Origin: Winogradskyella sp.
GTDB taxonomy: Bacteria > Bacteroidota > Bacteroidia > Flavobacteriales > Flavobacteriaceae
Direction: 5' to 3'
Assembly (NCBI RefSeq): GCF_013213975.1
Contig: NZ_JABSST010000002.1
Span: forward strand, 3,758-67,757
DNA length: 64,000 bases
Positions 12,380 through 50,074 of this stretch are shown here, one piece after another; position 1 is the stretch's first letter; each line of letters starts with the position of its first letter. The translations under genes were made by a program, and so were the position numbers. Under the pieces are notes generated by a model that had not been told where the DNA came from, did no database searches, and worked only from the letters and a program-made list of their open reading frames with translations.

Positions 12380-15300
12380 TTAAAAATCAAATCCTAATTG
12401 AAATGCAAATCGAAGTCCATCACTACTATTAAATGCAGACAACTGTGCGGTCATCATTTCTGCCATATTAACAAATAGCCCACCACCAAGAGAATTATGC
12501 CATTTATCTGAATTATCGTTGTCTAGCCATACACGACCGTAATCTACCCCTCCATATATTCCAATATGAATTGGCAAAAGCCCTGTTTTTAAACGCCCAA
12601 AATGCCAACGAACATCAGTGGATTGCGAAAAAGCAGTCTTTCCTGTAAACCTTTGAAATCTATATCCTCTTAAACCGGTTTTTGAACCTAAAGTAGCTCC
12701 TTGATAAAACTCAAAACCATCACCAAAATTTATATGCCCTCTCAAATTTGTTGCTAATACGAGCTTTCCGCTTGACACCAACTTGTAATCAACCCCTAAT
12801 TCTGATATGATATACCCAAATCCTTTAGTAGTAGTAGTATTATTTTTATAACCCGTATTTAATAGCGTTTGAAACCCCAATGTAGGAAAAGCATTATCAT
12901 CTTTATTCACATAGCTGTATACAGCGTCAATACCATAGAAATTTTGATTATCAAAAACAGCATCATCAGCAGAAATACTCTCTATAAACCTTCCTGAGGT
13001 ACGCTCTACTTCATTACTCTCATAGCTTATCCCAAACTTCAAACTTCCTCCCGTTTCCCCTCGCCAAATCAATGATGGCATAAAACTTAAGGTTCTAATT
13101 TTTACACGATTAAAATCCATATTCACATCCAATCCGTCATTTTCATCCGCTTCAGGGTTTGGGGTTTCATTTCCAAAACCGAAAAAATTAACTGCGAAGT
13201 TTGGACTATTAAACTGGGCTTCCAAGCCAAAATTTACATTTGGAAATATATTTGCAAATTCTCCTTTATAATTAAAATCAAAACCATTTGTAGCAAAATA
13301 GTAGACCGCAGAAAGTCTGTGTTGTGAGGTAAATGGATTACGCTCAAACCCATAAGCAGTATATGTGGCATTTGCCCCAACTCTGAAACCATCATCGGGA
13401 TTTGCACCAAAAGAAGGTAAAACCTGAGTAGTATTATTTTTTAATTTACGATAATCATAAGCATTAGTATCATAATTATCCGTAAACTTTTTGTGCCCTT
13501 TATTTGTCTTGACAATACTAGATTTTGATTTGTAATCATAATAAGTAATACGCTTTCCGTTTTCAATATTGTAAGTATCCTTATTCTGCCCACCAACTAA
13601 GCGTACTTTAATTTCCTTATCACTATTACTACCATAAACATAAAAAACATCATCATCACCTAAACCATAGATCCAAATTTCCTTAGTTTCATTATGATTA
13701 TATATTCGCTCAATAAACTTATCTTTTTTCTCACCTTTTTTAATGCGATATACTGTAATTTTTGTTTTCCCTTTTGGTAGACGTTCAATATCGAACCAAT
13801 CGTCTTTATTGGTTCCTTTGATGACCGCAACATTATTCAGTAAATCGTAATAGCGATCAGCAATCTTTTGAAGATTAGCTCTACGTGCCTTTAACTTCCT
13901 TTTAATTTCCTCTACTGTTTCATCTCTTACTTCTATTGGCATATTTAAAAATGCAGTCTCGATTACCTCATCCGTTAACCCGTCTTGAATCATTTTCACC
14001 TGAGCATTCCAAACCTTTTTATCGGATTGCACAATAAGCTCTTTATCCAATGGATAAGGTTCAAAATTAACCCCTTTCACATCTTTTAAGTCATCAGAAT
14101 AATTTCTCAATAATTTCGCGGCAGGTAGCAATTTTACTGCTAAATCAAGTAATAATCCGTCGCTCATTATTGAAAAGGCTTGGTCACGATCACGTGGCAT
14201 TGGTCGAAATACTTTTTTTCCATCTTCTTTGAATTGAATCCATCTCCACTGATCCTGATGTCTATCCCAATCACCTATAAGCATATCAAATAACCTTGCT
14301 CTAATATAGGATCCTTCATCAATTACGACATCCTCGTCTTTATGCAATTTCTCCATCATATCAATGGTACTTAACAACTTATCTTGAAATCCAAAACTGG
14401 CTAGGTCACTATGTCCTTCTGAAGTATGCTCTTCAATCATATAAAGCTCATTACCAAAGTCTGCATTATAGGCACCTAATGCATTTTGCTTGGGCACATA
14501 GTACAGTGTAGGATTCGTATGGTAAACATCAACTGCATCTGATAAATCACCAACAACAAAAGGTGCATAAGGATGAGAACCTGTAAACACATCTAAGAGT
14601 AAATCTTCTGTAGCTGTATCATCGAACTGCCCTTCTATATATTGATCTTTAAATAAAACAGCTTGTAAATACTGCAATGCCTGTTTGCGAAGTGCTCGCA
14701 TTACATATTGAGCTCCGTTTTTATCTTCTAAACGTAAAGACTTAGACTGGTTTCCACCTCCTTTACGCACAGGTTTCAAACCACCAAATAATGTATCTAA
14801 ATTCACAGTTGGAGCATTAACTTTAGTACCATAGTACTTTCGGTAACGTTTACCCCAAAAAAACCTCCTTGTCCCTGTCGCTTTAACCTCATCATCAGTG
14901 TAAATTGAAGCAGCTACAGTTTCAGGAAATTCAGACGGATAATTAGCTGGCTCCGGTTTTACATTCGGAGGTAAAACTTGACCTTCATAAACTAGTTTTT
15001 CGTCATCTGTTGAATAAAACTGAACGTGAGACGAACCGTCTTTATAAAGTTTTAAAATAGCATAGCCACGAGTACCATAACCAAAATTGGCATTCATATT
15101 TCTAACCGCTGAAACCTTAGATCCAGAGCCACTAACAATTTGATGTAAATTATCTTTTACTATATACTGCAAATTATGATCATGACCTGATACAAAAACC
15201 ACCTTTCTATTAACCTGAGCTAAGGCCACCAATTGACGTTTCATCTCATTATATCGAGCGTTTTGTAGATCTACATTAGCCACTCCACTAGTTTTACGAA

Positions 15301-16060
15301 TAACATTCTTTAATGTTCCTAACACAGGAAGAGGCTTCATATGGCTACCAAAAGAATACTGTCCTCCATGAGAACCATTTGTATATAACGGATGATGTAA
15401 TGCTACTATAGTTGTTTTTCCTCTTGCTTTTTTAATTAAGCTACTAAACTCATCGAGAAAATCATTTCGAGTCTTAAATTCACAATCATCATTAATTTTT
15501 GGGTGATTATTCCAATTTGTAATATACCATTGGGAATCTATAATGATGAGTTCGATATCATCTGAAACATGCACTTTTTCAATTGGGCAACCATTCTCGG
15601 GTAAAAATGTATTCTTACCTAATTTTTTTTCAACAAACTTTTCTTGTCGTTTAAGCCCATCTAAGCCGTGATACCAATCGTGATTCCCTGGAATAAAAAG
15701 AGCTTGTCCTTTAAAATTTTTTGTTGCTTCCGTTTGAACTCTCAAGCGATAAGAAGCCAAATCATAGTTCTCATCTCCTTTTTCAGGCAGTCCTTTTTCA
15801 TAAATATTGTCTCCTAAGAATATCGCTGTACTATTCGCTGAGGCTTTTTCTAACTCCTCTTCGAAGGCCTGAAGGGCTTTATCTTTTTTATTTAATTGAG
15901 AATTTCCTGCATCACCAATTAAATAAAATGTGTGCTCTACAGCCTTAGTTGTCGGCTCGATTTGATTTTCGGACTTTCCGTATTGTGGCTTATAAGTTGC
16001 ACAAGCGCTTAATAACAAGACTAATGATAAGGAACTAATGACTTTGATTGGCTTAGGCAT
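12380..16060 (-). CDS. Lipoprotein fusion: metallophosphoesterase + atypical kinase-like domain + Omp85/BamA-TamA-like beta-barrel
   Basis: Lipobox LLSAC; calcineurin-like motifs IGDAG, LGDNIY, PGNHDW, HHP, SGHDH; middle GGGNQS...IGDWDRHQDQW...PRDRDQAF; C-terminal barrel with GLRGYRFQRFTG (Omp85 L6-like loop), VDYGRVW and terminal QLGFDF. Confidence 0.8.
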   Translation of the reverse strand: MPKPIKVISSLSLVLLLSACATYKPQYGKSENQIEPTTKAVEHTFYLIGDAGNSQLNKKDKALQAFEEELEKASANSTAIFLGDNIYEKGLPEKGDENYDLASYRLRVQTEATKNFKGQALFIPGNHDWYHGLDGLKRQEKFVEKKLGKNTFLPENGCPIEKVHVSDDIELIIIDSQWYITNWNNHPKINDDCEFKTRNDFLDEFSSLIKKARGKTTIVALHHPLYTNGSHGGQYSFGSHMKPLPVLGTLKNVIRKTSGVANVDLQNARYNEMKRQLVALAQVNRKVVFVSGHDHNLQYIVKDNLHQIVSGSGSKVSAVRNMNANFGYGTRGYAILKLYKDGSSHVQFYSTDDEKLVYEGQVLPPNVKPEPANYPSEFPETVAASIYTDDEVKATGTRRFFWGKRYRKYYGTKVNAPTVNLDTLFGGLKPVRKGGGNQSKSLRLEDKNGAQYVMRALRKQALQYLQAVLFKDQYIEGQFDDTATEDLLLDVFTGSHPYAPFVVGDLSDAVDVYHTNPTLYYVPKQNALGAYNADFGNELYMIEEHTSEGHSDLASFGFQDKLLSTIDMMEKLHKDEDVVIDEGSYIRARLFDMLIGDWDRHQDQWRWIQFKEDGKKVFRPMPRDRDQAFSIMSDGLLLDLAVKLLPAAKLLRNYSDDLKDVKGVNFEPYPLDKELIVQSDKKVWNAQVKMIQDGLTDEVIETAFLNMPIEVRDETVEEIKRKLKARRANLQKIADRYYDLLNNVAVIKGTNKDDWFDIERLPKGKTKITVYRIKKGEKKDKFIERIYNHNETKEIWIYGLGDDDVFYVYGSNSDKEIKVRLVGGQNKDTYNIENGKRITYYDYKSKSSIVKTNKGHKKFTDNYDTNAYDYRKLKNNTTQVLPSFGANPDDGFRVGANATYTAYGFERNPFTSQHRLSAVYYFATNGFDFNYKGEFANIFPNVNFGLEAQFNSPNFAVNFFGFGNETPNPEADENDGLDVNMDFNRVKIRTLSFMPSLIWRGETGGSLKFGISYESNEVERTSGRFIESISADDAVFDNQNFYGIDAVYSYVNKDDNAFPTLGFQTLLNTGYKNNTTTTKGFGYIISELGVDYKLVSSGKLVLATNLRGHINFGDGFEFYQGATLGSKTGLRGYRFQRFTGKTAFSQSTDVRWHFGRLKTGLLPIHIGIYGGVDYGRVWLDNDNSDKWHNSLGGGLFVNMAEMMTAQLSAFNSSDGLRFAFQLGFDF

Positions 16061-16286: not shown

Positions 16287-17849
16287 TTACGAACTACAGG
16301 ACAACATGGAGCATCCAACTTTATGTCTCGCCCATTCTGGTCGTTTTACAAACCATTTTTCCATGTTGGGTTGCTCATCATAAGGTGCTTTGAGTAAGGA
16401 GAATAATTCACCTAACAGATTGTAGTCCCCTTTATTAGCATCATCAATGACTAATTGTGCCATAAAGTTTCGCAAAACATACTTTGGATTAACTGAGTCC
16501 ATCTTTACCTTGCGCTGAACGTCGTCTAATGGCTCTAATTGTAGTCTTTCGTCGTAACTCTTATACCATTCTTCCCATAGGTCAAGAATCTCTTCGTTTA
16601 AGTCATCGGGGTTATAAAGTGCTTCTCTTAAAATTTCAATTCCTGATAATGCATTTCCCTTTTTGAAATTTGACAACACCCTAAAGAAAATAGTCATGTC
16701 TGTTTCAGCCCTTGTTAAGCAATGCTCTAATGATTCAATCAAGGCTTGATCATTTTGATTTTGATTGACTAATCCTAGTTTAGAGCGCATCATCTCCAAA
16801 TGCTGTTGCTCAAAATTAAGCTGGTAGTCATTGAGAATAGACTCGAATGGCTCAGCCTCTTCTACCAATGGATAAAGGGCATTAGCGAGTTGCAATAAAT
16901 TCCATAACCCAATATTTGGTTGGTTACCATAACGATAGCGTTTATTGTGTTGGTCGGTTGTATTTGGTGTCCACCCGAAGTCATACCCTTCTAGCCAACC
17001 GTAAGGACCATAATCTATAGTCAAACCTAGAATAGACATATTATCGGTATTCATAACACCATGAACAAAACCAACGCGTTGCCAATGGATAATCATTCTT
17101 AGTGTATTCTCACTTACTGACCTAAAGAATTGGATATAGGATTGCTTAGAAGGTTCACCTAATTGAGGATAAAAATACTTTATAGAATAGTCAACAAGTC
17201 TTTTTAGGTTTTTATAATCCTTCCTTGCTGCAAACAACTCAAAATTACCAAAACGAACAAATGTTGGTGCGACACGACAAACAATAGCACCTTTCTCATA
17301 GTTAGCATTACCATTGTAAAGCATATCTCTTAAAACCTCATCCCCAGATAACATTAAGCTCAATGCTCTTGTAGTTGGAACACCTAAATAATACATGGCC
17401 TCGCTGCAAAGATATTCTCTAATTGAAGACCGTAAAACGGCTAAACCATCTCCTTGCCTTGAATAAGGTGTTTCACCAGCTCCTTTCAATTGCACAGCCC
17501 AACGCTTATGATTATGCTCTACTTCAAATAGATTAATAGCCCTACCATCACCTAATTGACCAGCCCAATTTCCAAATTGATGACCTGCGTATGCCATTGC
17601 AAAAGGTCTGGTTTTGGGTTGAAGTTTTGAACCAGAAAATACATCTAAAAAAGCATTTGAGCTTAAATCATCTTCATCTAATCCAATTGCCTTTGCCATA
17701 TCGGTAGAAACGTGGATTATTTTTGGATTCGATGGCACCTTAGGTTCTACAAAAGAATGGGTTGCCTCAAAAACTTTACGTCTCGTATTTTCTGTACTTG
17801 AATCAGCAGGCAATTCACAGCTAAATGTATCGCTGATGTTTAGTCGCAT
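16287..17849 (-). CDS. selO: SelO/YdiU protein adenylyltransferase (AMPylase pseudokinase)
   Basis: YAGHQFG, GQLGDGRA, QLKGAGETPYSRQGDGLAVLRSSIRE, GVMNTDNMSILGLTIDYGPY, NPKYVLRN, C-terminal GCSMLSCSS. Confidence 0.95.
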   Translation of the reverse strand: MRLNISDTFSCELPADSSTENTRRKVFEATHSFVEPKVPSNPKIIHVSTDMAKAIGLDEDDLSSNAFLDVFSGSKLQPKTRPFAMAYAGHQFGNWAGQLGDGRAINLFEVEHNHKRWAVQLKGAGETPYSRQGDGLAVLRSSIREYLCSEAMYYLGVPTTRALSLMLSGDEVLRDMLYNGNANYEKGAIVCRVAPTFVRFGNFELFAARKDYKNLKRLVDYSIKYFYPQLGEPSKQSYIQFFRSVSENTLRMIIHWQRVGFVHGVMNTDNMSILGLTIDYGPYGWLEGYDFGWTPNTTDQHNKRYRYGNQPNIGLWNLLQLANALYPLVEEAEPFESILNDYQLNFEQQHLEMMRSKLGLVNQNQNDQALIESLEHCLTRAETDMTIFFRVLSNFKKGNALSGIEILREALYNPDDLNEEILDLWEEWYKSYDERLQLEPLDDVQRKVKMDSVNPKYVLRNFMAQLVIDDANKGDYNLLGELFSLLKAPYDEQPNMEKWFVKRPEWARHKVGCSMLSCSS

Positions 17850-18007: not shown

Positions 18008-19198
18008 ATGGAAAACCTCTTAGAAGACATAGAACAATATGTCACGTCGTATTTAAACGACCACCTAGACACCTCTTTTGTGTATCATAACTTAGCCCAT
18101 ACACAACGAGTTGTATCTAAAGCCAAAGAACTCATTGAAGAAAGTGATTTAACCGAAGCAGATGCAGAGCTACTATTGATAGGTGCATGGTTTCATGACA
18201 TTGGTTTTACTGAGACAATAGAAGGTCATGAAAAACAAAGCGAAATAATTGCATCTGAGTTTTTAAAATCCCGTAAAGTTTCTGATGAAAAGATTTCCAA
18301 TATCTCTAAGATTATATTGGCGACTGAAATGAGCTATGAACCCAAGAACACCTTAGAATGTCTAATACGTGATGCTGACTGCGCTCATATCTCAAGCAAA
18401 AATTACGAAGACTATGCTGCCTTACTAAGAAAAGAATGGGAGCTTACCAAGGGTAAAAAAGTTTCAAAGACGGAGTGGTTAGAAGAGAATATTGAGTTTT
18501 TAACCAATCACAGCTTCCATTCCGATATAGCTAATAGAAAATGGCAAAAACGGAAAAGGAAAAACTTAGCCAACCTTATACAAAGTCAAAATAAAATTAA
18601 AGCAAATACTGAGAAATTAAAACAGAAGAAAGCCGAATTAAAATTTAAAAAAGAAAAATTAGACCTACCTGATCGCGGTATAGAGACCATGTTCCGAGTA
18701 GCTCTAAGAAATCACATGACTCTTAGTGATATTGCAGACACTAAAGCCAATATTTTATTATCGGTAAATGCTATAATTATTTCTGTTGCTTTATCCAACT
18801 TACTACCCAAATTAGACAACCCATCGAATACTTATTTAATTTATCCAACTTTAATATTCCTAGTATTTACAGTAGCTTCAATTGTATTATCAGTATTAGC
18901 GACAAGACCAAACGTAACTATGGGAAAATTCACTAAAGAAGATGTTGCAAACAAAAAAGTAAACCTGCTCTTTTTTGGTAATTTTCATCAAATGAAACTT
19001 GATGAATTCGAATGGGCCATGAATGAAATGATGAAAGACAAAGACTATTTATACGGCTCACTCACTAAGGATCTTTATTTCTTAGGCTTAGTATTAAACA
19101 GAAAGTATGGTCTACTTAGGCTAACTTATACAGTATTTATGGTAGGTATAGTAATAAGTGTATTAGCTTTTGGTATTTCTTTTTACTTCTCTGCATAA
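18008..19198 (+). CDS. HD-domain phosphohydrolase fused to a Pycsar-type (PycTM/DUF5706) transmembrane effector
   Basis: N-terminal YHNLAHT, AWFHDIG, GHE, RDADCAH; basic coiled linker; C-terminal IADTKANILLSVN, LLFFGNF, RKYGLLRLTY with about 3 TM helices. Confidence 0.8.
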   Translation: MENLLEDIEQYVTSYLNDHLDTSFVYHNLAHTQRVVSKAKELIEESDLTEADAELLLIGAWFHDIGFTETIEGHEKQSEIIASEFLKSRKVSDEKISNISKIILATEMSYEPKNTLECLIRDADCAHISSKNYEDYAALLRKEWELTKGKKVSKTEWLEENIEFLTNHSFHSDIANRKWQKRKRKNLANLIQSQNKIKANTEKLKQKKAELKFKKEKLDLPDRGIETMFRVALRNHMTLSDIADTKANILLSVNAIIISVALSNLLPKLDNPSNTYLIYPTLIFLVFTVASIVLSVLATRPNVTMGKFTKEDVANKKVNLLFFGNFHQMKLDEFEWAMNEMMKDKDYLYGSLTKDLYFLGLVLNRKYGLLRLTYTVFMVGIVISVLAFGISFYFSA

Positions 19199-19226
19199 TT
19201 AAAAGTACCAAGACGCTAATAACACC

Positions 19227-21602
19227 TTATGACTTAATTTCTTTCATTAAATCATCATAGGTATAAAAAGCTTTGTCGTTTTTATCTTTATGATAGAGCA
19301 CGCTTACTCTAATAGCCTTTAAGCCAGTAACTGCTTGTAAGTCCTGTAATTCCACAATTTCGACATCATCATCCAGATACTTTTTTGATTGTAAGAATCT
19401 TACATATCGTAAATACTCTAATTCGTCCTCCTTTTGAGAATAAACGATGCTAATCTTTCCTTTTTCAGTAACTCTTTCTGTAGTACCTTTTATATAAGCC
19501 TTATCAACTCGCTTTTTCACAATTTCATATCGGGCATTATACGTCCCATCAACATCAAACTGTTTTTCATCCATTCTAAAGCTAATCGTCAAAGGTTGAT
19601 TAAAAACTAAAATCATCGAAGCAACATCTAACGCAACAGGAAAATCAGATTGCATTTGGTAGTAAGCATTTTCCATCTCTACCATAACTTGCAGCTGCCA
19701 CAATCTTAAATTATAAAGGTAAATTGGATTAAAACTGTCTTCCTTAGTCAAGGATTCGCCAATATACATATTGTGCTCAACACCATCAGTTTTAAAACGC
19801 TCAAAATAATGCGGATACATCAATTGAGCTTCTACTTGTTTTTGATCTAGCAAGGAAGCCATTTCCTTATTTATTGAAGCAATAGTATTATCGTATTGTT
19901 TTCTATGGTAATACAACACATCTACAAGATCATCAATACCATTAAAATAATCATCGATACCGGATTTTAATTTTTCATTAGCATACAAATGCTTTAGAAC
20001 TGGTTCTAATTCTTCTTTAATAAATCCTGATATCTGTTGCTCACTATCGACTTGGAAATTAGATTCAAGATTCGCCAGAAATGCATTGATTTGAAAAACA
20101 TATTGCTCAAAAATTGGCAAGGCTTCATCAACAGATGCCATTTGCAAAATTGTTTTGATAGCACTTAATTGCATGGTTAAGTCTTGCTGTGTAGCCCAAT
20201 TTCTGGCCTCTGAGGATCCTTTAATATCTATTTGACCATATAAAGGATAAATATTCTCAAAAGCTATTTTATTGAAATTAGGCTCTTGACCATTCCATTC
20301 AGCTTTAATATAATTTCTTGCCTCTTGCTCAAATCTCCAATGCACGCTGGAATGAATAGAGGTACACTCTTTTTGGATAATTGCCTCTATTAAGTTTTCT
20401 TCTTCATTTTTAGAACGTTCTACAGCAGAAATAATAAAAGGCATTACATCAACTAATTTGTTAGCATTTATACTATTGAGTACCTTAGCCTCTGTTGACA
20501 CAATTTCAATCACTCCCATTAATCCTTGATCCTTCGCAATCGGGGCGAATATTGCACTTTTAAACCCTTGATCGTGAAGTACTTTTACATGGGGAGGAAC
20601 TTTACCGTCATACTTTTCAAAGATGCGATCTACATCAGATACTGAAAAATATTTATTCTCTTCTAATAACCTATTATAAGACCACTCGCATAAGGCATCA
20701 CCACAAGTCATACTCTCCTTATCATTGAGTAAAAAACTATTCATACCTACGCCGTAGACGCGCTCAAATGCCCCTTCTTCTTCATTATAAATAGAAAATC
20801 CTACTTCTAAGTTTTTAAACCCAAATAGGGAACGGAAAATATCATAAAAACCTTCTATGAAATTTGCATCCTTACGTTGATCTTCACCAATTAATGAAGA
20901 CTTGATATTAGAAATAGACTGGTCGTCCGTAACATCAAAAATATTTGATATTACAAATCCTTTAAAGTCATATGAATTAGGTGGAAACTTCTCTTTCCAG
21001 AGGTCTATATTCTCAAAATTATCTAGTAATTCTTCGTAATCAGCTTCTGTAATTTTAGGCGCATTCTTTCTTGGAATTATTTCCGTAAAATCTGCATTAT
21101 AAAGAATTTTATAATAACGCATAATACCATCAGAATCAGGTATTTCGTAAAAAAATGGACGTTTAAAATTAAGATTATAACCGTAACAGAAATTTAGGAT
21201 TAATGTACAAGCAATGATATACTTTTCATCCGTAGGCATATTTTTGACTTGCAATTCAAAATCATCGCCTGCATTTTTTAAAATAGATTTAAAACGATCT
21301 GAGGTATTGAACACTAAATCCAAAAAGGGCACATATGCCGTCTTAATCTCATTATTGGTTAAAATTGGGCTAAATGAATCTTGTAGAATACCTTCAATTT
21401 CTTTTTCATAGGTTTTAAGCAAGGTTAAATCGGTAAATCCCTCTCTCAATATTGGATTCTTTTCTGCTATTTCTAAAACACGACGTGCATTTGCAGCAAT
21501 AAAACCGTTATCTGCTTTAATCAAATTTTCATATTGATTAAGCATTTTATTAAAGCTAACTTTAATAACTAATGGTGAATCTAAATTTTCGTTAATGTTC
21601 AA
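19227..21602 (-). CDS. GAF-domain protein with a C-terminal divergent class III nucleotidyl cyclase-like domain
   Basis: GAF motif SAIFAPIAKDQGLMGVIEIVS; cyclase-like motifs FENIYPLYGQIDIKGSS, ERFKTDGV, FDVDGTYNAR, GKISIVYS. Start moved to TTG 21602 because the ORF-track TTG at 21626 lies inside a -7 box. Confidence 0.7.
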   Translation of the reverse strand: MNINENLDSPLVIKVSFNKMLNQYENLIKADNGFIAANARRVLEIAEKNPILREGFTDLTLLKTYEKEIEGILQDSFSPILTNNEIKTAYVPFLDLVFNTSDRFKSILKNAGDDFELQVKNMPTDEKYIIACTLILNFCYGYNLNFKRPFFYEIPDSDGIMRYYKILYNADFTEIIPRKNAPKITEADYEELLDNFENIDLWKEKFPPNSYDFKGFVISNIFDVTDDQSISNIKSSLIGEDQRKDANFIEGFYDIFRSLFGFKNLEVGFSIYNEEEGAFERVYGVGMNSFLLNDKESMTCGDALCEWSYNRLLEENKYFSVSDVDRIFEKYDGKVPPHVKVLHDQGFKSAIFAPIAKDQGLMGVIEIVSTEAKVLNSINANKLVDVMPFIISAVERSKNEEENLIEAIIQKECTSIHSSVHWRFEQEARNYIKAEWNGQEPNFNKIAFENIYPLYGQIDIKGSSEARNWATQQDLTMQLSAIKTILQMASVDEALPIFEQYVFQINAFLANLESNFQVDSEQQISGFIKEELEPVLKHLYANEKLKSGIDDYFNGIDDLVDVLYYHRKQYDNTIASINKEMASLLDQKQVEAQLMYPHYFERFKTDGVEHNMYIGESLTKEDSFNPIYLYNLRLWQLQVMVEMENAYYQMQSDFPVALDVASMILVFNQPLTISFRMDEKQFDVDGTYNARYEIVKKRVDKAYIKGTTERVTEKGKISIVYSQKEDELEYLRYVRFLQSKKYLDDDVEIVELQDLQAVTGLKAIRVSVLYHKDKNDKAFYTYDDLMKEIKS

Positions 21603-21622
21603 TGTTTGATAATCTGTTAAAA

Positions 21623-21637
21623 GCAAAGTTACAAATA
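21623..21637 (-). promoter_or_regulatory. Extended -7 promoter motif of the GAF/cyclase-like gene
   Basis: Minus-strand TATTTGTAACTTTGC containing a perfect TAACTTTG. Confidence 0.6.
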
Positions 21638-21714: not shown

Positions 21715-23385
21715 CTATTGCTTTTCAAGAAGAACAATATCAAATTCAGAATTTACATTAACCTTTCCTTCTGACACGATAATCTCTTGATTTGAATACG
21801 CATCTCGCAGTACATCACCATCTTCAAAAACTTTTGAAACGTCAAGAACTTTGTCGCCTTTGTTCAATTCCAAACCGACAACGACTAAATCTTTATATTC
21901 TCCTTTTTGATAGGATCTATAAAATGTGTAAGGTGATTGCGTAATCATTTGATGCACTCCAGCTCCTATAGCAGGATGTTTTGCTCTGAATGTCCCTAAC
22001 CTTTGCCAATGCGTTAAAACGTTCTTGGTATTGTCATCGTTAGCAATAGCATCCCAATTCATGAAAGAACGTAAGGTTGCATCACCTTGTGTACCTTCAA
22101 TTACTAAAGGTCTTGCCGATTCGTCGCCATAATATACCTGAGATGTTCCAGGAGATAATAAAAGTCGGTTAGCGGATTCATAACTTTTTTCACGATTAGG
22201 ATCGAAAGGGCTACCATCGTCATGAGAACTCAAATAATTTAATGTACCAAACCCTTGCAGTGCGGTACTTAAAGTATCTGAATACCTTTTAAAGTGTTCC
22301 TCAAAAGTGACCTGTTGCGCATTCCACTTGAATTCAAAATTGATTAGACTATGAAAGCTTGGTGGATTAAAGTAATTGACTTTTCTATCACCAAACTCAT
22401 AATACTGACCACTACTAATATTGTAATTATAAACCTCACCAACCAGATAAAACGCGTTATCATCTAAAACTTTATCTGGATTATTGCTTTTGAATAAGTT
22501 AAAAGCGGTATCACACTCCTCTTTAAATTCTTGCCAAACAAACTCTTCAGTGTGTTTTACAGTGTCAACTCTGTAACCATCTACACCAAATTCTTTTATA
22601 TAATCTGTAAGCCACTTCATGATATAAAAACGCGGAGCTCTTGGATGTCCTGTACGTTCAAAAAAGGCGTCTAGTTCTTTGACCTCGCGCTCGTAGCGCC
22701 CTTCTGCTTTCCATTTTTGAACGAGTTGTGGCGGTAATTCCACTGCCTCGTTACTTTCTGTTAAAATATCTGGTAAATTCTCTACCAAAGTACAAGTTAC
22801 CGTATGCTCATAAGTATCAAAAGCACATTTTGGACTAGTCCTTACCCAACTTTCTGGCCAAACAGGATCCTTTTCTGTTACAGGACCAGTATGATTAATA
22901 ACCGCATCCAAGACCACTCTAATTCCTCTTGCATGCGCTTCATTTACCAATTCGTGAAGGTCTTCTTTTGTCCCAAAGTTAGGGTCAATTTTGGTCCAAT
23001 CTTTGGTCCAGTAGCCATGAAATCCATAAGTAAATCCTGTTCCCTCGTCTGTTCCCCCATGTATTTGTTCTACGATTGGCGTCATCCAAATGGCGTTGAT
23101 TCCTAAATCTGAAAAGTAGCCCTCTTTGATTTTTTGGGTAATTCCTTTAATATCTCCACCTTCAAAACCTCTTAACTTTCCTGTCTCTCTAGTTCTATCA
23201 AAATTGATATCATTAGAAGGATCTCCATTATTAAAACGGTCAGTTAAAAGGAAATAAAGATTAGCACCTTCCCAATCAAAATGTTGTTTTGGTGGCTCAA
23301 TTACTTCTGCTAATTCTTCTTCAGAATTCCCTTGATTACAACTTAGAGTAAGGGTTAACATCAATAATGCTATTATTTTTTTCAT
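21715..23385 (-). CDS. GH13 alpha-amylase family lipoprotein
   Basis: Lipobox TLSC; GFHGYW, DAVINH, GYRVDTVKH (nucleophile), VGEVY, SSHD. Confidence 0.9.
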   Translation of the reverse strand: MKKIIALLMLTLTLSCNQGNSEEELAEVIEPPKQHFDWEGANLYFLLTDRFNNGDPSNDINFDRTRETGKLRGFEGGDIKGITQKIKEGYFSDLGINAIWMTPIVEQIHGGTDEGTGFTYGFHGYWTKDWTKIDPNFGTKEDLHELVNEAHARGIRVVLDAVINHTGPVTEKDPVWPESWVRTSPKCAFDTYEHTVTCTLVENLPDILTESNEAVELPPQLVQKWKAEGRYEREVKELDAFFERTGHPRAPRFYIMKWLTDYIKEFGVDGYRVDTVKHTEEFVWQEFKEECDTAFNLFKSNNPDKVLDDNAFYLVGEVYNYNISSGQYYEFGDRKVNYFNPPSFHSLINFEFKWNAQQVTFEEHFKRYSDTLSTALQGFGTLNYLSSHDDGSPFDPNREKSYESANRLLLSPGTSQVYYGDESARPLVIEGTQGDATLRSFMNWDAIANDDNTKNVLTHWQRLGTFRAKHPAIGAGVHQMITQSPYTFYRSYQKGEYKDLVVVGLELNKGDKVLDVSKVFEDGDVLRDAYSNQEIIVSEGKVNVNSEFDIVLLEKQ

Positions 23386-23389
23386 ACTA

Positions 23390-25282
23390 TTACTTTATTT
23401 TCAAAATAAATGATTCTAATGGTTTTATATCAATCCTGACTTGGGCTTCTCCCTTAAGTACTTTTAAATTAGAAGTATAATTATTATAAAGCTGATCCTC
23501 AAGCACATAGTCTCCGTCTTGGAGCTTCAATTTTTCTACTAAATCTTCTGGCAGCTGAAGTTCAAACCCATATGCATTATCGGCATTAAAGTTTGAAACA
23601 ATAATGAGTTGCTCACTGTCACTCCATCTTACAAATGACAACACCTTATCATTATACCATTCTGTGTGCTGCTGATTATACAAATGGATATCCTGATAGT
23701 TTCCCATTAAAGCTTCACTTTCCAGTGTAAAATTGAGTAGACGCTTATAAAAATCTCTAAGGCTAATTTCATCTTCAGTGGACTGACCACCATCAAACTT
23801 TTTGTCATTAACCCAACGTACCAAACTTGGAACAGAACCATAATCAAAAATTGATGTTCTTGAAGGGTCACCAAACCCTAAATCTTCGGCTCCAGGTTCC
23901 CCAAATTCTTGAGCAAAATAAATCATAGTAGGCGCTGTTGTTGATGTCGCTGAAACCACCATCGCTGGTTTACCCTTAAGTGCATTGCCTGCAAAGTCCG
24001 GACTTGCAATACGCTGTTCATCATGATTCTCTAAAAAATGAAGCATGTGATGCTCTATATCACTGAGCTCATCTAAAATGGGAGGAATATTATCGGTCTT
24101 TCCATGACCTTGCATAACGTGCTTTAAGGTATCATACAATTGAACCTTATCGTACAAGTAATCCATTTTACCTTTTTTAATATAATCCCGATATAAATGT
24201 GGCTGATACACCTCTGCTAGTAGAAAAGCGTTTGGATTATTCATCTTTATATGCGAATTCATATAACTCCAAAATTCTACTGGAACCATTTCTGCCATAT
24301 CAAATCTAAATCCATCAACCCCTTTATCTGTCCAATACAAAGCAATGTCTTTAAATTTCACCCAAGAACTCGGCACCTTTTTATCTTTCCAAAACTCAAA
24401 ATGAGTTTTATAGCCCTCACTATCAAATCCTTTTGGCAATTCATCAAAATCTTTATTTCCATCAGGGTCTATACCATAATTTACCTTTACGGTTTCATAC
24501 CAGTCGTACATGTCTGGTTGCGATTTTCTTGACCCATTACCAGTCCATTTTGCTGGTACTTCCCGAAATTTACCATCAGCTAAAGGATGATGGTTTCCAC
24601 CAAGTGGCTGGTAATCATTTTTCCATTCTGGAACCTGAAAGGATTCGCCTGGATTATAATAGAAATTATTGTCTACGTGATAAGTAATGGAACTATCATC
24701 TTCTGCACCAAAATCTGTTGCGCCATGAGGATTGGTTAAACCTTCATAATTTCGAGCTACGTGGTTAGGAACTATGTCTATGATTAGTTTTAAACCTACT
24801 TTATGAGTCCGCTCAATTAAAGCTTCAAACTCCTGGAGTCTCTGATCTACATTTACAGCTAAATCAGGATTAACATTATAATAGTCTTTAACAGCATAAG
24901 GTGAACCTGCTCTACCCTTTACAATGTCAGGATCATCATTTGAAATGCCATATTTTGAATAATCTGTAATTACATCATGATGCGGAACTCCGGTATACCA
25001 AATATGTGTTACCCCTAATTCTTTAATTTCAGTCAGGGCCCTCTCAGTAAAATCATTAAATTTCCCTACTCCATTATCTTCGAGCGTTCCCCAAGATTTG
25101 TTAGTGCTATTTGTGTTTCCAAATAAACGAGTAAAAACCTGATAAACAACTTGCTTCTTTTTCATCTGTGATTCGATTTCATTTTCCGTGTTCAGTTCGG
25201 CTTCAGTAGTTTTCTTTTCATTACTACAAGCAACTACAAATAAAATAATGGTGATCCAAGCACTATATTTTAGTGATTTCAT
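23390..25282 (-). CDS. GH13 alpha-amylase family lipoprotein
   Basis: Lipobox VVAC; GSPYAVKDYY, DIVPNH, GFRFDMAE, LAEVY, ENHDE. Confidence 0.9.
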   Translation of the reverse strand: MKSLKYSAWITIILFVVACSNEKKTTEAELNTENEIESQMKKKQVVYQVFTRLFGNTNSTNKSWGTLEDNGVGKFNDFTERALTEIKELGVTHIWYTGVPHHDVITDYSKYGISNDDPDIVKGRAGSPYAVKDYYNVNPDLAVNVDQRLQEFEALIERTHKVGLKLIIDIVPNHVARNYEGLTNPHGATDFGAEDDSSITYHVDNNFYYNPGESFQVPEWKNDYQPLGGNHHPLADGKFREVPAKWTGNGSRKSQPDMYDWYETVKVNYGIDPDGNKDFDELPKGFDSEGYKTHFEFWKDKKVPSSWVKFKDIALYWTDKGVDGFRFDMAEMVPVEFWSYMNSHIKMNNPNAFLLAEVYQPHLYRDYIKKGKMDYLYDKVQLYDTLKHVMQGHGKTDNIPPILDELSDIEHHMLHFLENHDEQRIASPDFAGNALKGKPAMVVSATSTTAPTMIYFAQEFGEPGAEDLGFGDPSRTSIFDYGSVPSLVRWVNDKKFDGGQSTEDEISLRDFYKRLLNFTLESEALMGNYQDIHLYNQQHTEWYNDKVLSFVRWSDSEQLIIVSNFNADNAYGFELQLPEDLVEKLKLQDGDYVLEDQLYNNYTSNLKVLKGEAQVRIDIKPLESFILKIK

Positions 25283-34705: not shown

Positions 34706-35755
34706 CTATTTGGTTGACGCTCGTTCAATCAATTCTGTATTGATGACAATGGTATTAAAGTGTTCTTCTTCATCTTCATTTAGTCCTTTTTCTAATTTAT
34801 CAATCAATAAATTTGCTGCTTGTTCACCCATTTTTTGAGCATGCTGACTCACGGTTGTTAAACTAGGAGTTGCATGCTTAGACAACACACCATCTGTAAA
34901 TCCAATAACTTGTAAATCATTTGGAATGTCTAAACCTAACTTTCTCGCAACTTTCATTGCTGATAACGCGTATAGCTCATTAACTGCAAATACACCATCA
35001 ATATTTTTATTTGCTTTGAAAAGCTGCTCAATTTCATTTTCCAGAGCATCAAGATGTACTTCATAATCCAAGCTATCATCAATTTTTAGAATTAACTCAG
35101 ACTTTGGTATTAATTTATGATCATTTAATGCGTCCATGTAACCTTGAGTTCTCAATTTACCAACGCTTACATAATCTTTTGTTGTGATTAACGCAATAGA
35201 TTTACAACCATTTTCTACAAGTTTAGAGACCGCTTTTTTTGATCCATCTAAATCATCAACAATAACCTTATCACAATTTATATCAGAAACAACCCTATCA
35301 AACATTACAATAGGCATGCCCTGGTTCATTGTTTCATTGAAATGGTGATAGTCTTGCTGTTGCAAGGTTTCTTTTGATATAGAGAGAATAAATCCGTCAA
35401 TACTGCCATTGGCTAGCATCTCCATATTTATAACCTCCTTTGAAAAAGATTCATTAGATAGACCTACAATAACATTATAACCTCTGGTATTAGCAACAAG
35501 TTCAACTCCCCTTATAACCTTAGAAAAGAAGTGATGAACAATTTCAGGTATTATTATACCTATGGTATTTGTTTTTCTGTTCTTAAGACTTAATGCAATA
35601 TTATTAGGTCTATAGTTATATAGTTTTGCAAAGGCTTGAACTTTCTGTTTCGTATCATCGCTAATTTCTACGCTATTTCTCAAGGCTTTCGAAACTGTTG
35701 AGATTGAAACATCAAGTTCTCTTGCTATTTGTTTTAGGGTGATTTTTCGTTTCAT
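34706..35755 (-). CDS. LacI-family transcriptional regulator of the alpha-glucan PUL
   Basis: HTH ITLKQIARELDVSISTVSKAL, YRPNNIA, periplasmic-binding-fold sensor, PSLTTV. Confidence 0.95.
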   Translation of the reverse strand: MKRKITLKQIARELDVSISTVSKALRNSVEISDDTKQKVQAFAKLYNYRPNNIALSLKNRKTNTIGIIIPEIVHHFFSKVIRGVELVANTRGYNVIVGLSNESFSKEVINMEMLANGSIDGFILSISKETLQQQDYHHFNETMNQGMPIVMFDRVVSDINCDKVIVDDLDGSKKAVSKLVENGCKSIALITTKDYVSVGKLRTQGYMDALNDHKLIPKSELILKIDDSLDYEVHLDALENEIEQLFKANKNIDGVFAVNELYALSAMKVARKLGLDIPNDLQVIGFTDGVLSKHATPSLTTVSQHAQKMGEQAANLLIDKLEKGLNEDEEEHFNTIVINTELIERASTK

Positions 35756-48409: not shown

Positions 48410-50074
48410 ATGAAGCGCTCTTGGTGGAAAGAAGGTATTGTTTATCAAATATATCCACGATCTTATAAGGATACCACAGGAAATGGTATTGGTGATATTT
48501 ACGGTATCGTCGAAAAATTAGATTACATTAAATCTCTTGGTGTAGATATTATTTGGCTTTGTCCTGTTTACGAATCTCCCAATGATGATAATGGGTATGA
48601 CATTTCAGATTATAGAGCTATTTCTGAGGATTTTGGCGGATCGGAAGCCTTTGATACATTATTAAAAGGCATGCATGACAGAGGACTAAAACTGGTTATG
48701 GACCTAGTGCTTAACCACAGTTCGGACGAACATTTATGGTTTAAAGAATCTAGAAAATCTAAAGATAATCCATACCGCGACTATTACTTCTGGAAAGCAT
48801 CAGAAGATGATAATCCACCAAATAACTGGGTGTCTTTTTTTTCTGGATCAGCATGGAAAAAGGATGAATTAACCAACGAATACTTCTTACACCTGTTCAC
48901 CAAAAAGCAACCAGATCTTAATTGGGAAAACCCTAAGGTTCGCCGAGAAATCCATGACATTGTTGAATTTTGGTGCAAGAAAGGAGTTGATGGCTTTAGA
49001 ATGGATGTCATTTCTTTAATCTCAAAGCAATTAGATTTCCCAGACAGTCCTTTTCCTGACGATTATGGCAAAACCATTAAAAATTATTATGCCAACGGTC
49101 CTCGTATTCATGAATATCTTAATGAGCTAAATAAAAAGGTCCTCTCTAAGTATAATATTATGACTGTTGGTGAAGGCCCTGGAATTGATCTTAGCAATGG
49201 TTTAGATTATGTTGACGAAAGCAGAGAAGAACTTAATATGATTTTCCATTTCGATCATATGTTTATAGACAACGGTCCTGGTGGGAAGTATGATCCTGTA
49301 GAGGTTGCATTGCCAAAGTTTAAACAGGTTTTTACAGATTGGGATGAAAAACTAAAAGGCAGAGGCTGGGGAAGTATTTTTTTAGGTAATCACGATTTTT
49401 CGCGAATGGTTTCGCGATTTGGAAATGATAAAGATTATCATCAGGAATCTGCAAAACTGCTTGCCATGCTCTTATTGACCATGAGAGGTACAACATACAT
49501 TTATCAAGGTGATGAAATTGGTATGACTAATGTTGCATATCCTTCAATTGAAGATTATAACGATGTTGAAACACTTGGCAGTTGGAATGAAGCCAAAGCT
49601 CGAGGAGAAAATATGACTGCCTATTTAAAATTAGTACATAGACAAAGTAGAGATAATGCTAGAACTCCTGTGCAATGGGATAATTCCAAAAATGCTGGAT
49701 TTTCATCGGGTAATCCTTGGCTCAAAGTAAATCCTAACCATACATTGATTAATGTTGAAGCGCAATCCCATGATCCTAATTCCATCTTAAGTTTTTATAA
49801 GAACATGATTCGCTTTAGAAAAGCAAACCCAGTTATGGTCTATGGAGATTATGAATGTCTGTATCCAGAAGACAATAGTCTATTTATTTACAAACGCTGG
49901 GATGATCAAAGTAGTTACATTATTCTTTTAAATTTCAGTAATGAGACACAGCTATTAAAAAACAATCCTCTAAATCTAAACCAAAGTGAATTATTGATTT
50001 CAAATTTAGAGGACGGGAAATGTAATTCAAAGTTGTTGCCATGGGAGGCACAACTAAGGCGCTATTTAATCTAG
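48410..50074 (+). CDS. GH13 oligo-1,6-glucosidase/alpha-glucosidase (GH13_31-like), cytoplasmic
   Basis: WWKEGIVYQIYPRS, DNGYDISDY, DLVLNH, QPDLNW, GFRMDVI, GNHD, RDNARTP; no signal peptide. Confidence 0.9.
   Translation: MKRSWWKEGIVYQIYPRSYKDTTGNGIGDIYGIVEKLDYIKSLGVDIIWLCPVYESPNDDNGYDISDYRAISEDFGGSEAFDTLLKGMHDRGLKLVMDLVLNHSSDEHLWFKESRKSKDNPYRDYYFWKASEDDNPPNNWVSFFSGSAWKKDELTNEYFLHLFTKKQPDLNWENPKVRREIHDIVEFWCKKGVDGFRMDVISLISKQLDFPDSPFPDDYGKTIKNYYANGPRIHEYLNELNKKVLSKYNIMTVGEGPGIDLSNGLDYVDESREELNMIFHFDHMFIDNGPGGKYDPVEVALPKFKQVFTDWDEKLKGRGWGSIFLGNHDFSRMVSRFGNDKDYHQESAKLLAMLLLTMRGTTYIYQGDEIGMTNVAYPSIEDYNDVETLGSWNEAKARGENMTAYLKLVHRQSRDNARTPVQWDNSKNAGFSSGNPWLKVNPNHTLINVEAQSHDPNSILSFYKNMIRFRKANPVMVYGDYECLYPEDNSLFIYKRWDDQSSYIILLNFSNETQLLKNNPLNLNQSELLISNLEDGKCNSKLLPWEAQLRRYLI

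Follow-up and report, generated by a model that had tools for sequence, protein, structure and literature searches.

In the 64,000-nucleotide stretch of Winogradskyella sp. DNA analysed here (the window), two neighbouring genes, one for a protein with a divergent nucleotidyl cyclase-like domain and the other for a membrane protein that joins an HD domain to a PycTM-type module (HD-PycTM), point to an undescribed cyclic-nucleotide circuit of the core genome and not to a mobile phage-defence island. We put at roughly 0.6 the probability of the whole model, in which a sensor-regulated, divergent class III-type cyclase and an HD-PycTM receiver form a vertically inherited signalling module of the Bacteroidia. 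This model is built on what was observed of the domains, the fold, the conservation of residues and the linkage of the genes, and the features concerned are collected in Table 1.

Table 1. Features of the gene pair and of a nearby gene, in window coordinates
Feature	Position	Strand	Basis
Possible third partner, 1226-aa lipoprotein with calcineurin-like phosphoesterase domain	12380..16060	-	PF00149
HD-PycTM gene, 396 aa (HD phosphohydrolase in the cytoplasm, then a Lys-rich linker and a PycTM-type membrane module)	18008..19198	+	ORF
HD domain, aa 26-196, intact H...HD...D metal site	18083..18595	+	PF01966, E 1e-6; PF24391 HD-CE, E 2e-7
PycTM module, aa 232-390	18701..19177	+	PF18967 at aa 270-380, E 4e-38
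Intergenic gap between convergent stop codons, 28 bp	19199..19226	.	Sequence
PAS-like / GAF / class III cyclase-like gene, 799 aa from TTG 21626	19227..21626	-	ORF
Class III nucleotidyl-cyclase-like catalytic domain, aa 455-776	19299..20264	-	AF2 + DSSP + Foldseek
D614 codon, candidate second metal-binding Asp	19785..19787	-	T613-D614-G615 turn of β2-β3 hairpin (DSSP)
Helical insertion between β1 and β2, ~130 aa with five helices (aa 471-603)	19818..20216	-	DSSP
D467 codon, candidate first metal-binding Asp	20226..20228	-	C-terminal end of β1 (DSSP), then IKGSS and helix; canonical motif D-I-x-G-F-T
GAF domain, aa ~255-405	20412..20864	-	Family profile against PDB GAF domains, 3p01, E 2e-4
PAS-like N-terminal domain, aa ~20-250	20877..21569	-	AF2, pLDDT 93

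The two convergent open reading frames and the short gap between them had been proposed in a sequence-only reading of this DNA and are present as described. Every motif quoted there is found in the translations, namely FENIYPLYGQIDIKGSS with D467, ERFKTDGV with D614, FDVDGTYNAR with N697 and GKISIVYS in the cyclase-like protein, and YHNLAH, WFHD, RDAD, ADTKANILL, LLFFGNF and RKY in the 396-aa protein. The cyclase-like protein probably starts at a second TTG at 21602, giving 791 aa where homologues have 790 aa; the 799-aa numbering is kept here. No hairpin resembling an intrinsic terminator was found in the gap, and the genes, being convergent in the window, are therefore not co-transcribed.

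The cyclase-like protein belongs to a large family, with 3626 homologues at E<=1e-3 among 8000 scored; these form 1077 clusters at 50% identity, are nearly all ~790 aa long and carry the public names 'GAF domain-containing protein' or 'hypothetical protein'. The GAF domain itself, already recognised from the sequence, is borne out by the family profile and by matches that reach the Pfam threshold in two homologues (P0252 and P0534), PF01590 in the window protein alone staying under threshold (E 0.05-0.13), and it is absent from a 578-aa Bacteroidales member of the family (P0266). For the N-terminal domain the top Foldseek matches are PAS/LOV domains exclusively, if weak ones (E 0.05-0.4, best probability 0.84-0.92). 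PAS-like and GAF domains upstream of a catalytic domain are the typical layout of regulated cyclases, and this was therefore counted for the cyclase reading.

Searches by sequence found no cyclase in the 799-aa protein. PF00211 gave no match in Pfam even at E<=10, no cyclase model of NCBIfam or PADLOC matched, that of PycC included, phmmer and profile searches of the PDB returned no cyclase, and hhalign of the cyclase-like domain against 116 real cyclase domains gave a non-significant E of 0.3-0.5. We attribute this failure to the helical insertion. As sequence matches the cyclase-like motifs are not significant, but in fold and conservation they go beyond chance.

It is possible, if doubtful, that the family is the long-known but unstudied 'class V' adenylate cyclase, of which the sole representative is the cAMP-making CyaA of Prevotella ruminicola D31d (AAC12946.1 / O68902). 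The Prevotella enzyme is reportedly of ~67 kDa, possibly similar in size to the GAF-less Bacteroidales members of our family, and it too comes from the Bacteroidales; it is reported to be unlike every other class, and the window family is undetectable against class III by sequence. Class V, represented by this enzyme (Cotta et al. 1998), is an orphan class in which no likeness to the remaining cyclases can be recognised. Against this identity, no family member among the matches listed carries the name 'adenylate cyclase', and in the class V literature we found neither a structure, a domain analysis or a partner gene nor any connection with GAF, PycTM or the class III fold. If true, it would mean that the enzyme class has already been described, which is compatible with the model favoured here and affects its novelty only.

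The case for a cyclase comes from structure and conservation. A template-free AF2 model of aa 420-799 (pLDDT 94.2) was assigned secondary structure with DSSP and compared with the PDB using Foldseek, and ranks 1-43 were class III cyclases without exception (E 3.9e-4 to 2e-2, probability ~1.0, target-normalised TM ~0.5), among them Cya2 (2w01), sGC, CyaC (1wc0), Rv1900c and the uridylate cyclase 8jsz. The E-values are modest, the RMSD is 5-9 Å, and the alignments span 330-360 columns against cyclase domains of ~195 residues. DSSP places β1 at 455-469, β2 at 607-612, β3 at 616-623, a helix at 634-661 and β4 at 667-674, and a conserved helix follows at 696-709. The class III fold suggested by the sequence-only reading is thus upheld by the model, as are its two candidate metal-binding aspartates, D467 and D614, which lie at canonical positions of the fold and are each invariant in 304/304 unique homologues drawn from Bacteroidota, Fusobacteriota and high-GC soil contigs. 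In the same set S471, D482, Q601, G615, G623, G694, K704, R706, K709 and R718 are also invariant, and position 617 is E or D throughout with a single Ala exception; the insertion contributes D482, E529, Y572, R575, N586 and Q601 as invariant or near-invariant residues.

The best structural matches are sensor-regulated bacterial class III cyclases such as the cyanobacterial Cya2 and CyaC, a group that also includes GAF/PAS-cyclases such as CyaB1. The window protein follows the same plan, with PAS/GAF sensor domains leading through a linker helix into a catalytic domain at the C-terminus, and it has acidic residues where β1 ends and in the β2-β3 turn, as they do; it differs in that its catalytic domain has no detectable sequence homology to theirs and carries the insertion in the α1 region. 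Its motifs are altered with respect to class III cyclases, reading D-I-(K/R)-G-S-S, K-T-D-G-V-(E/D) and F-D-V-D-G-x-Y-N-x-R-Y-E-I-x-K-K-R-I-D-K, and their registers are non-canonical, with KTDG in place of KT(I/L)GD, N697 six and not seven residues past the Asp of FDV(D)G, and R699 at N+2 and not N+4. Tentatively, K/R612 and D691 may form a Lys/Asp-like pair, a hint of ATP as substrate. Class III-like cyclases of Bacteroidetes have been recognised computationally before, in the DUF2652 proteins, found also in Actinobacteria and Proteobacteria, which have conserved metal-binding Asp residues and a βααββαβ motif (Ramakrishnan et al. 2016, PMC4886424). That is a different family, whose Pfam DUF has no match in the window protein and for which no association with GAF, PAS or PycTM is described in that paper.

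We think it unlikely that the palm-like domain is instead another enzyme, such as a cyclic di-/oligonucleotide synthase or other nucleotidyltransferase, or a non-catalytic regulatory pseudo-cyclase. The non-canonical registers and the lack of PF00211 membership by sequence would fit such a domain, the big conserved insertion could reshape the active site, the DGVE(Y/H) hairpin loosely resembles GG(D/E)EF, and the partner's PycTM half matches models of CBASS 2TM effectors, which respond to oligonucleotides. However, the Foldseek top 50 contained no GGDEF, Cas10 or CD-NTase domain, and DNA polymerase palms appeared only from rank 44 downward; catalysis is favoured by two Asp and several Lys/Arg residues that never vary across several phyla, and in Persicobacteraceae a canonical class III cyclase holds the corresponding place beside HD-PycTM.

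The HD-PycTM protein has >8000 homologues, many of them named 'Pycsar system effector family protein', and is 75-80% identical between Flavobacteriaceae genera. The PycTM features and some three transmembrane segments seen by eye in its C-terminal half are confirmed by the PF18967 match and by hydropathy, with strong segments at aa 247-267, 275-303 and 367-396. The PADLOC PycTM models match at E 9e-17 with 15-151 of 160 model positions aligned, and several CBASS 2TM effector models match the same half at E 4e-12 to 9e-7. In the HD domain H27, H31, H63, D64, H74, D122, D124 and H127 are at least 97% conserved (78 sequences, 36-76% identity). It had been likened to cNMP phosphodiesterases, and of this the HD assignment with intact metal residues stands but the cNMP specificity is unsupported: the closest solved structure is the uncharacterised E. 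coli YedJ (3gw7, E 0.08), and PDEase_I gave no match.

Pycsar is reportedly made up of a PycC cyclase and a PycTM effector. The window pair resembles it in the genetic coupling of a cyclase with a predicted class III fold to a PycTM membrane protein, which covers the PADLOC PycTM models almost end to end, and in being operonic in some lineages. Judged by sequence it is not a member of Pycsar, as the cyclase lacks a PycC/PF00211 match and has PAS-like and GAF sensors and the insertion, the effector bears an N-terminal HD hydrolase, and the genes are core, vertically inherited, slowly evolving, mostly convergent and outside defence islands. CBASS 2TM effectors, which are small proteins of the membrane that respond to a nucleotide signal, are matched more weakly than PycTM, and the CD-NTase is absent here.

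These likenesses would suit an anti-phage variant of Pycsar in which PAS and GAF sense infection, cNMP is made, PycTM brings about abortive infection by collapsing the membrane and HD serves as a safeguard against self-activation, a reading that we regard as improbable. Defence genes are patchy and fast-evolving, whereas both genes occur in nearly all Flavobacteriaceae and their products are 75-86% identical from genus to genus; the window surroundings are housekeeping and starch-utilisation genes, with SelO, amylases and a metallophosphoesterase among the neighbours and no defence island; and plasmid matches number at most six, all on non-mobilisable megaplasmids of Cytophagia or Fusobacteriota, neither gene being found on mobilisable plasmids. 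The cyclase-like family also occurs alone in other phyla. The place of the two genes in the core genome and their slow evolution make housekeeping signalling a likelier role than Pycsar defence, and the earlier caution that the pair may be physiological holds. The metallophosphoesterase may be a third partner, and an orthologue of this lipoprotein additionally has a ShlB-type barrel. Its gene is divergent-adjacent to HD-PycTM in 50/80 Flavobacteriaceae loci, adjoins it in Fulvitalea, and in locus L088 lies 4 bp past PycTM in the same co-directional string; SelO (16287-17849) separates the two in this window.

Linkage of the cyclase-like and HD-PycTM genes is conserved through several arrangements. 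They lie tail to tail in 69 of 80 Flavobacteriaceae loci (50-77% identity) with a median gap of ~39 bp while other neighbours vary, and the partner is missing from the flank in five, two of these flanks being too short to judge. HD-PycTM lies directly upstream of the cyclase-like gene, co-directional, with a 12-bp gap in one clade (P0251) and a 1-2 bp gap in a Bacteroidales MAG. The cyclase-like protein of the Flavobacterium difficile clade carries the HD domain as a C-terminal fusion (39% identity to the window HD domain, E 3e-37), and PycTM is encoded there by a gene of its own 1 bp downstream; the stand-alone PycTM of L088 is 61% identical to the window module. Composite enzymes that make and break a second messenger are known in GGDEF-EAL and GGDEF-HD-GYP proteins, and the F. 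difficile-clade protein similarly combines in one polypeptide an HD hydrolase with a synthase-like domain of palm fold, although the window-type HD is YedJ-like and not HD-GYP, and the palm domain is nearer to class III than to GGDEF. In Fulvitalea and Persicobacter (Cytophagales, Persicobacteraceae) a canonical PF00211 membrane cyclase, with no sequence relation to the 799-aa family, adjoins HD-PycTM, co-directional in one and convergent in the other.

The proposed co-occurrence thus holds in the Bacteroidia, through rearrangement, fusion and canonical-cyclase replacement, and is confined to them: outside, none of six sampled distant members and none of 80 metagenome loci of the cyclase-like family has an HD or PycTM neighbour, so that the enzyme does not need an HD-PycTM partner. 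That adjacency is mere inherited synteny between proteins of unrelated processes is very improbable, since, despite the mostly convergent and hence separate transcription, the restriction to Bacteroidia and the separate replicons that carry the genes in Chondrinema, it outlasts three arrangements while the flanks change, includes a Rosetta-stone fusion, and has a counterpart in the independent pairing of HD-PycTM with canonical cyclases.

In the favoured signalling module, catalysis and its product, the sensing of a ligand by PycTM, the hydrolytic action of HD and the physiological role are inferences. The 799-aa protein would be a cytoplasmic sensor-enzyme in which PAS-like and GAF domains sense small ligands and are joined through a conserved helix to the cyclase domain. 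By analogy with class III cyclases this domain would dimerise, D467 and D614 would hold two divalent metals, and an NTP would be converted to a cyclic nucleotide. The partner would sit in the inner membrane, where its PycTM-type module, by analogy with Pycsar and CBASS 2TM effectors, may receive the nucleotide and alter a membrane property, and the HD domain, with its intact catalytic site, would most likely hydrolyse the signal as a built-in off-switch. The outer-membrane metallophosphoesterase may be an additional member. The module would in this way link the membrane to a cue from metabolism or from a ligand, and would not be a mobile abortive-infection system.

The two open reading frames lie in a window of about 35% GC from a marine flavobacterium, and the closest named relatives of both the 396-aa HD-PycTM protein (N-terminal HD domain, C-terminal PycTM-type membrane module) and the 799-aa protein are found in Winogradskyella species and in Flavobacteriales bacterium ALC-1; the sequencing runs that contain the stretch are all DNA metagenomes, of marine (sediment) origin. 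As the sequence-only reading had it, the frames converge with a gap of 28 bp, and every motif quoted in that reading is found at the residue and nucleotide positions assigned to it. A scan of the 28-bp junction found no intrinsic terminator. Translation of the 799-aa frame could start at either of two in-frame TTG codons separated by 24 nt, at 21626 (799 aa) or 21602 (791 aa), of which the downstream one is favoured because most homologues are 790 aa long; an A/T-rich stretch, TAAATATTTG, lies just 5' of these candidates on the reverse strand. The SelO gene separates the metallophosphoesterase gene from HD-PycTM in a Winogradskyella-like subset of genomes only, and is therefore regarded as inserted into an otherwise conserved block of three genes. 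The pair lies beside a starch-utilisation locus, as two α-amylase genes and a LacI-type regulator indicate, and the window also carries two 3-keto-disaccharide hydrolase genes.

Coordinates of genes (in the window unless a homologous locus, L, is named) and of predicted structural elements (residues of the 799-aa reading)
Feature	Location	Strand	Remark
HD-PycTM ORF, 396 aa	18008..19198	+	
PAS-like/GAF/cyclase-like ORF, 799 aa from TTG 21626	19227..21626	-	
SelO protein adenylyltransferase gene	16287-17849	-	between metallophosphoesterase and HD-PycTM
Metallophosphoesterase gene	12380-16060	-	
Metallophosphoesterase gene, F. difficile clade	L088 11528-15196		
Metallophosphoesterase gene, Persicobacteraceae	L173 910-4590		
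Two α-amylase genes and LacI-type regulator	21715-25282, 34706-35755	-	
Two 3-keto-disaccharide hydrolase genes	50066-50815, 58887-59663		
Canonical cyclase genes, Persicobacteraceae	L173 7468-8676, L176 7815-9002		adjoin HD-PycTM
Split HD-PycTM frame, Bacteroidales MAG	L179 4847-5999, L180 712-1864		
Tandem cyclase-like paralogues	L081 3596-8355		one metagenome contig
Cyclase-like gene, Haliovirga abyssi	L178 4804-7125		megaplasmid pHIC
β1	aa 455-469		DSSP of AF2 model
Five helices (insertion)	aa 471-603		DSSP
β2	aa 607-612		DSSP
Three-residue turn T613-D614-G615	between β2 and β3		DSSP
β3	aa 616-623		DSSP
α helix	aa 634-661		DSSP
β4, then further strands	aa 667-674 (β4)		DSSP
Conserved helix YNARYEIVKKRVDK	aa 696-709		DSSP

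By sequence the C-terminal part of the 799-aa protein does not qualify as a class III cyclase, whereas by predicted fold it does. Against Pfam the whole protein gave a sub-threshold GAF match alone (E 0.13), NCBIfam, PADLOC and PDB sequence searches returned nothing, and the C-terminal 380 residues matched no Pfam family, PF00211 included, even at E<=10. A profile of the family recovered GAF domains only from the PDB, with the solved structure 3p01 at E 2e-4, and PF01590 passes its cut-off in the family homologue P0252 (23.7 bits against 22.4) although the window sequence alone stays below it; the proposed GAF domain thus has a significant match to both a structure and a model. In profile–profile alignment, hhalign against a cyclase profile of 116 genuine PF00211 domains (the AC5-C1 query behind that profile agrees with the PDB 'VC1' chain, P0413, at 100% identity) gave E 0.3-0.5 and was never significant, whether the helical insertion was kept or excised (five ways), and canonical Persicobacteraceae cyclases used as bridging sequences had no similarity to the GAF family. 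We attribute the failure of sequence methods to the insertion of ~130 residues between β1 and β2. A Pfam 'SLOG cluster3' match (aa 196-263, E 0.02-0.04) was taken as noise, that region being modelled as PAS-like, and PF27174 ('YeeD') appears in precomputed annotations of homologues in a patchy and often weak manner. The family is large and uniform, with 1077 clusters at 50% identity, almost all of ~790 aa.

A template-free AlphaFold2 model of residues 420-799, built with 82 diverse homologues, has a mean pLDDT of 94.2, and its first 43 Foldseek matches in the PDB are all class III nucleotidyl cyclases, as expected of the cyclase domain that had been proposed from motifs. These include Cya2, soluble guanylate cyclase, CyaC, Rv1900c, mammalian adenylyl cyclases and the Anabaena uridylate cyclase (8jsz, rank 26), the top match having E 3.9e-4, a probability of ~1.0 and a target-normalised TM-score of ~0.5. 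Polymerase palms enter the list at rank 44, and GGDEF and other palm enzymes were rejected, being absent from the top matches (no GGDEF in the top 50). The model therefore has the βααββαβ palm-like core of the cyclase homology domain. In class III cyclases the first metal-binding aspartate lies at the end of β1, in the motif D-I-x-G-F-T, and the second in the β2-β3 turn, the two converging on one site. D467 is found where β1 ends, ahead of I-K-G-S-S and a helix, and D614 in the β2-β3 turn, so that secondary structure and the known fold suggest that they are equivalent to the first and second of these residues respectively. The N-terminal 255 residues are also modelled with confidence (pLDDT 93), and their Foldseek matches, although weak, are all PAS or LOV domains; with the GAF domain this gives the order PAS-like, GAF, helix and cyclase-like, an arrangement usual among regulated cyclases.

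Conservation was assessed over 304 unique C-terminal domains, drawn from representatives, 80 Flavobacteriaceae genomes, other loci and 80 metagenome contigs whose median GC of 68.5% places them in other phyla. D467 and D614, both put forward as metal ligands, are invariant in all 304, as are S471, D482, Q601, G615, G623, G694, K704, R706, K709 and R718. Position 617 is Glu or Asp throughout save for one Ala, position 612 is Lys or Arg in 90%, D691 and R699 are conserved in 95% and 97% respectively, and position 697 is Asn or Asp. Class III cyclases form head-to-tail dimers with active sites at the interface. They carry a transition-state Asn and Arg on helix α4, in the pattern N-x-x-x-R, together with Arg/Lys residues that bind phosphate. 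Here N/D697, R699, K704, R706, K709 and R718 lie on or after the equivalent helix, with a spacing unlike the canonical one. The overall pattern of conservation fits an enzyme rather than a decayed domain. K/R612 and D691 would tentatively resemble the Lys/Asp pair that suggests ATP as substrate, in a register taken from a non-significant alignment.

The partner protein is more readily classified. The 396-aa sequence matches HD (PF01966, E 1e-6, 29.3 bits against a cut-off of 22), HD-CE (PF24391, E 2e-7) and PycTM (PF18967, E 4e-38) in Pfam, and aligns with almost the full extent of the PADLOC PycTM models (E 9e-17); matches to several CBASS '2TM effector' models were obtained as well. With three strongly hydrophobic segments in its C-terminal half, it agrees with the PycTM features and about three transmembrane segments that had been described. 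Of the earlier account of the N-terminal half, the H...HD...D metal-ligand pattern stands (H27, H31, H63-D64, D122 and D124 are conserved in at least 97% of 78 sequences of 36-76% identity) and the likeness to cyclic-nucleotide phosphodiesterases does not: PDEase_I, HD-GYP and solved phosphodiesterases gave no match, with just generic HD, HD-CE, HDIG and YedJ-like hits, and the YHNxxH motif is not diagnostic by itself. Among HD proteins of solved structure, the closest in sequence is E. coli YedJ (E 0.08), which is uncharacterised. Since the ligands are intact, this HD domain, assigned to the metal-dependent phosphohydrolases, is probably active, on a substrate that homology does not indicate. 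Homologues of the protein number more than 8000, many of them named 'Pycsar system effector family protein'.

The association of the two genes was followed in 80 Flavobacteriaceae genomes (50-77% identity), where HD-PycTM is directly downstream and convergent in 69 (median gap ~39 bp), convergent with an insert between in six, and absent from the available flank in five, two of these flanks being too short to tell. Other neighbours, such as the amylase and SelO genes, vary, and taken alone this adjacency could be inherited synteny. It is found rearranged elsewhere. In the clade of the homologue P0251, HD-PycTM lies directly upstream and co-directional at 12 bp; in a Bacteroidales MAG it is again upstream and co-directional, 1-2 bp from a cyclase-like protein of 578 aa that lacks the GAF domain. 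The HD-PycTM frame of this MAG is split into ORFs of 310 and 69/77 aa, both matching PycTM, in two independent assemblies. The cyclase-like protein of the Flavobacterium difficile clade (WP_166077240.1 and ten cluster-mates, 968-974 aa) carries at its C-terminus a fused HD domain that is 39% identical to that of the window (E 3e-37). A PycTM gene standing alone begins 1 bp after the fusion, with 61% identity to the C-half of the window's HD-PycTM. Finally, in two Persicobacteraceae (Cytophagales), the neighbour of HD-PycTM is a membrane class III cyclase of canonical type, which Pfam recognises and which has no sequence relationship with the GAF family; the two genes run in the same direction in Fulvitalea axinellae and converge in Persicobacter sp. 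JZB09. These two cyclases are 42% identical over 226 aligned residues, with a hydrophobic, apparently multi-TM N-terminal half and a canonical catalytic domain (FLDLKNST, YVGDE, YHGEVLNVAAR). An adjacency that survives rearrangement, a Rosetta-stone fusion and replacement by a bona fide cyclase together provide good comparative evidence that HD-PycTM works with a cyclase and that the GAF protein fills this role; the anticipated co-occurrence of the pair is borne out within Bacteroidia.

HD-PycTM has a frequent further neighbour, the gene for a 1226-aa lipoprotein that contains a calcineurin-like phosphoesterase domain and, in an orthologue, a ShlB-type barrel as well. This gene is divergent-adjacent to HD-PycTM in 50/80 Flavobacteriaceae loci, lies close by in Fulvitalea, and in the F. 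difficile clade belongs to the same co-directional string, 4 bp after the stand-alone PycTM gene. Bacterial class III cAMP phosphodiesterases belong to the calcineurin-like phosphoesterase superfamily, and judged by gene order this metallophosphoesterase may belong to the module as its third component.

Outside these groups the pairing ends. Neither an HD nor a PycTM gene was found near six distant family members, including that of Mangrovivirga and a tandem pair of paralogues of 786 and 784 aa, nor in 80 metagenome loci of the high-GC clade (0/80; L091-L170, among the many soil contigs of ~68% GC in which the family occurs). In the Fusobacteriota the gene occurs alone on a megaplasmid, in Chondrinema the cyclase-like and HD-PycTM genes are on different replicons, and a Pfam census of 137 nearest neighbours returned varied metabolic genes only. 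The catalytic-type residues are unchanged in all non-Bacteroidota members (Haliovirga and L091-L170). From the missing partner in distant members, we infer that the cyclase-like enzyme is a general stand-alone signalling protein which the Bacteroidia coupled to HD-PycTM.

Whether the family already has a name was also considered. It is not DUF2652, the cyclase-like proteins of Bacteroidetes, which is a different family (PMC4886424, Biol Direct 2016), and a search of the available literature found no paper that joins HD with PycTM, or this GAF family with cyclases. The family may, although this is less likely than not, belong to class V adenylate cyclase, a class with one known protein, CyaA of Prevotella ruminicola (Bacteroidales; AAC12946.1 / O68902), which is said to be unlike all other classes. 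Were the family class V, the novelty of the enzyme class would change while the fold assignment and the PycTM partnership keep theirs, and an enzyme class orphaned for 25 years would gain a fold, a mechanism and a partner.

Pycsar, the other point of reference, has a PycTM or PycTIR effector, of which this pair shares the PycTM module. Its cyclase and effector stand in one operon; the genes considered here are convergent in the window and in 69/80 Flavobacteriaceae, and co-directional with gaps of 1-12 bp in the P0251 clade, the F. difficile clade and the Bacteroidales MAG. The 799-aa protein matches no PADLOC model of the pyrimidine cyclase PycC, and whereas Pycsar is patchy, mobile and associated with defence islands, both proteins here are near-universal in Flavobacteriaceae and 75-86% identical across genera, a core and vertical distribution; neither gene was found on mobilisable plasmids. 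The neighbours in the window are SelO, the metallophosphoesterase lipoprotein, amylases and the starch-utilisation locus, in keeping with the earlier caution that the surroundings are those of housekeeping genes. Taken together, these features do not resemble a Pycsar defence island, and a role in anti-phage defence, for which the shared effector module speaks, is considered improbable. Regulated physiological signalling is the leading reading.

Fold, conservation and linkage thus support, at the computational level, a cyclase-fold protein with an HD/PycTM effector: on the predicted structure and the comparisons made, the pair would be a class III-fold cyclase and a PycTM effector, a combination of known kind whose architecture is new and whose setting is the core genome. 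A mechanism can be sketched from the observed domains, fold, invariant acidic and basic residues, intact HD site, three TM segments and gene linkage. The PAS-like and GAF domains would sense a ligand, upon which a dimeric cyclase-like domain would cyclise an NTP by two-metal chemistry; the PycTM module would receive the product, by analogy with Pycsar and CBASS effectors, giving an output at the membrane, and the HD domain would probably hydrolyse the signal. More broadly, and with a probability of about 0.3, the family may be an unrecognised ancient branch of class III cyclases, possibly the structural identity of class V, which with HD-PycTM and perhaps the metallophosphoesterase forms a core-genome nucleotide-to-membrane circuit in Bacteroidia.

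On this reading thousands of entries named "GAF domain-containing protein", in 1077 clusters from several phyla, would acquire a predicted enzymatic function, a cognate signal generator would be at hand for many "orphan Pycsar system effector family proteins" of Bacteroidota, and the cyclase-plus-PycTM logic of phage defence would also exist as a conserved chromosomal signalling module. This touches the question of how immune signalling originates in housekeeping circuits or degenerates into them, and the present circuit, if real, would be the housekeeping counterpart of Pycsar or the source from which it evolved. For the synthesis of cyclic nucleotides in Flavobacteriia, the 799-aa protein is a concrete candidate; if the circuit exists as proposed, its family would be the main source of cyclic nucleotides in these bacteria, and a metabolite-gated cyclase would control membrane permeability or dormancy in every cell.
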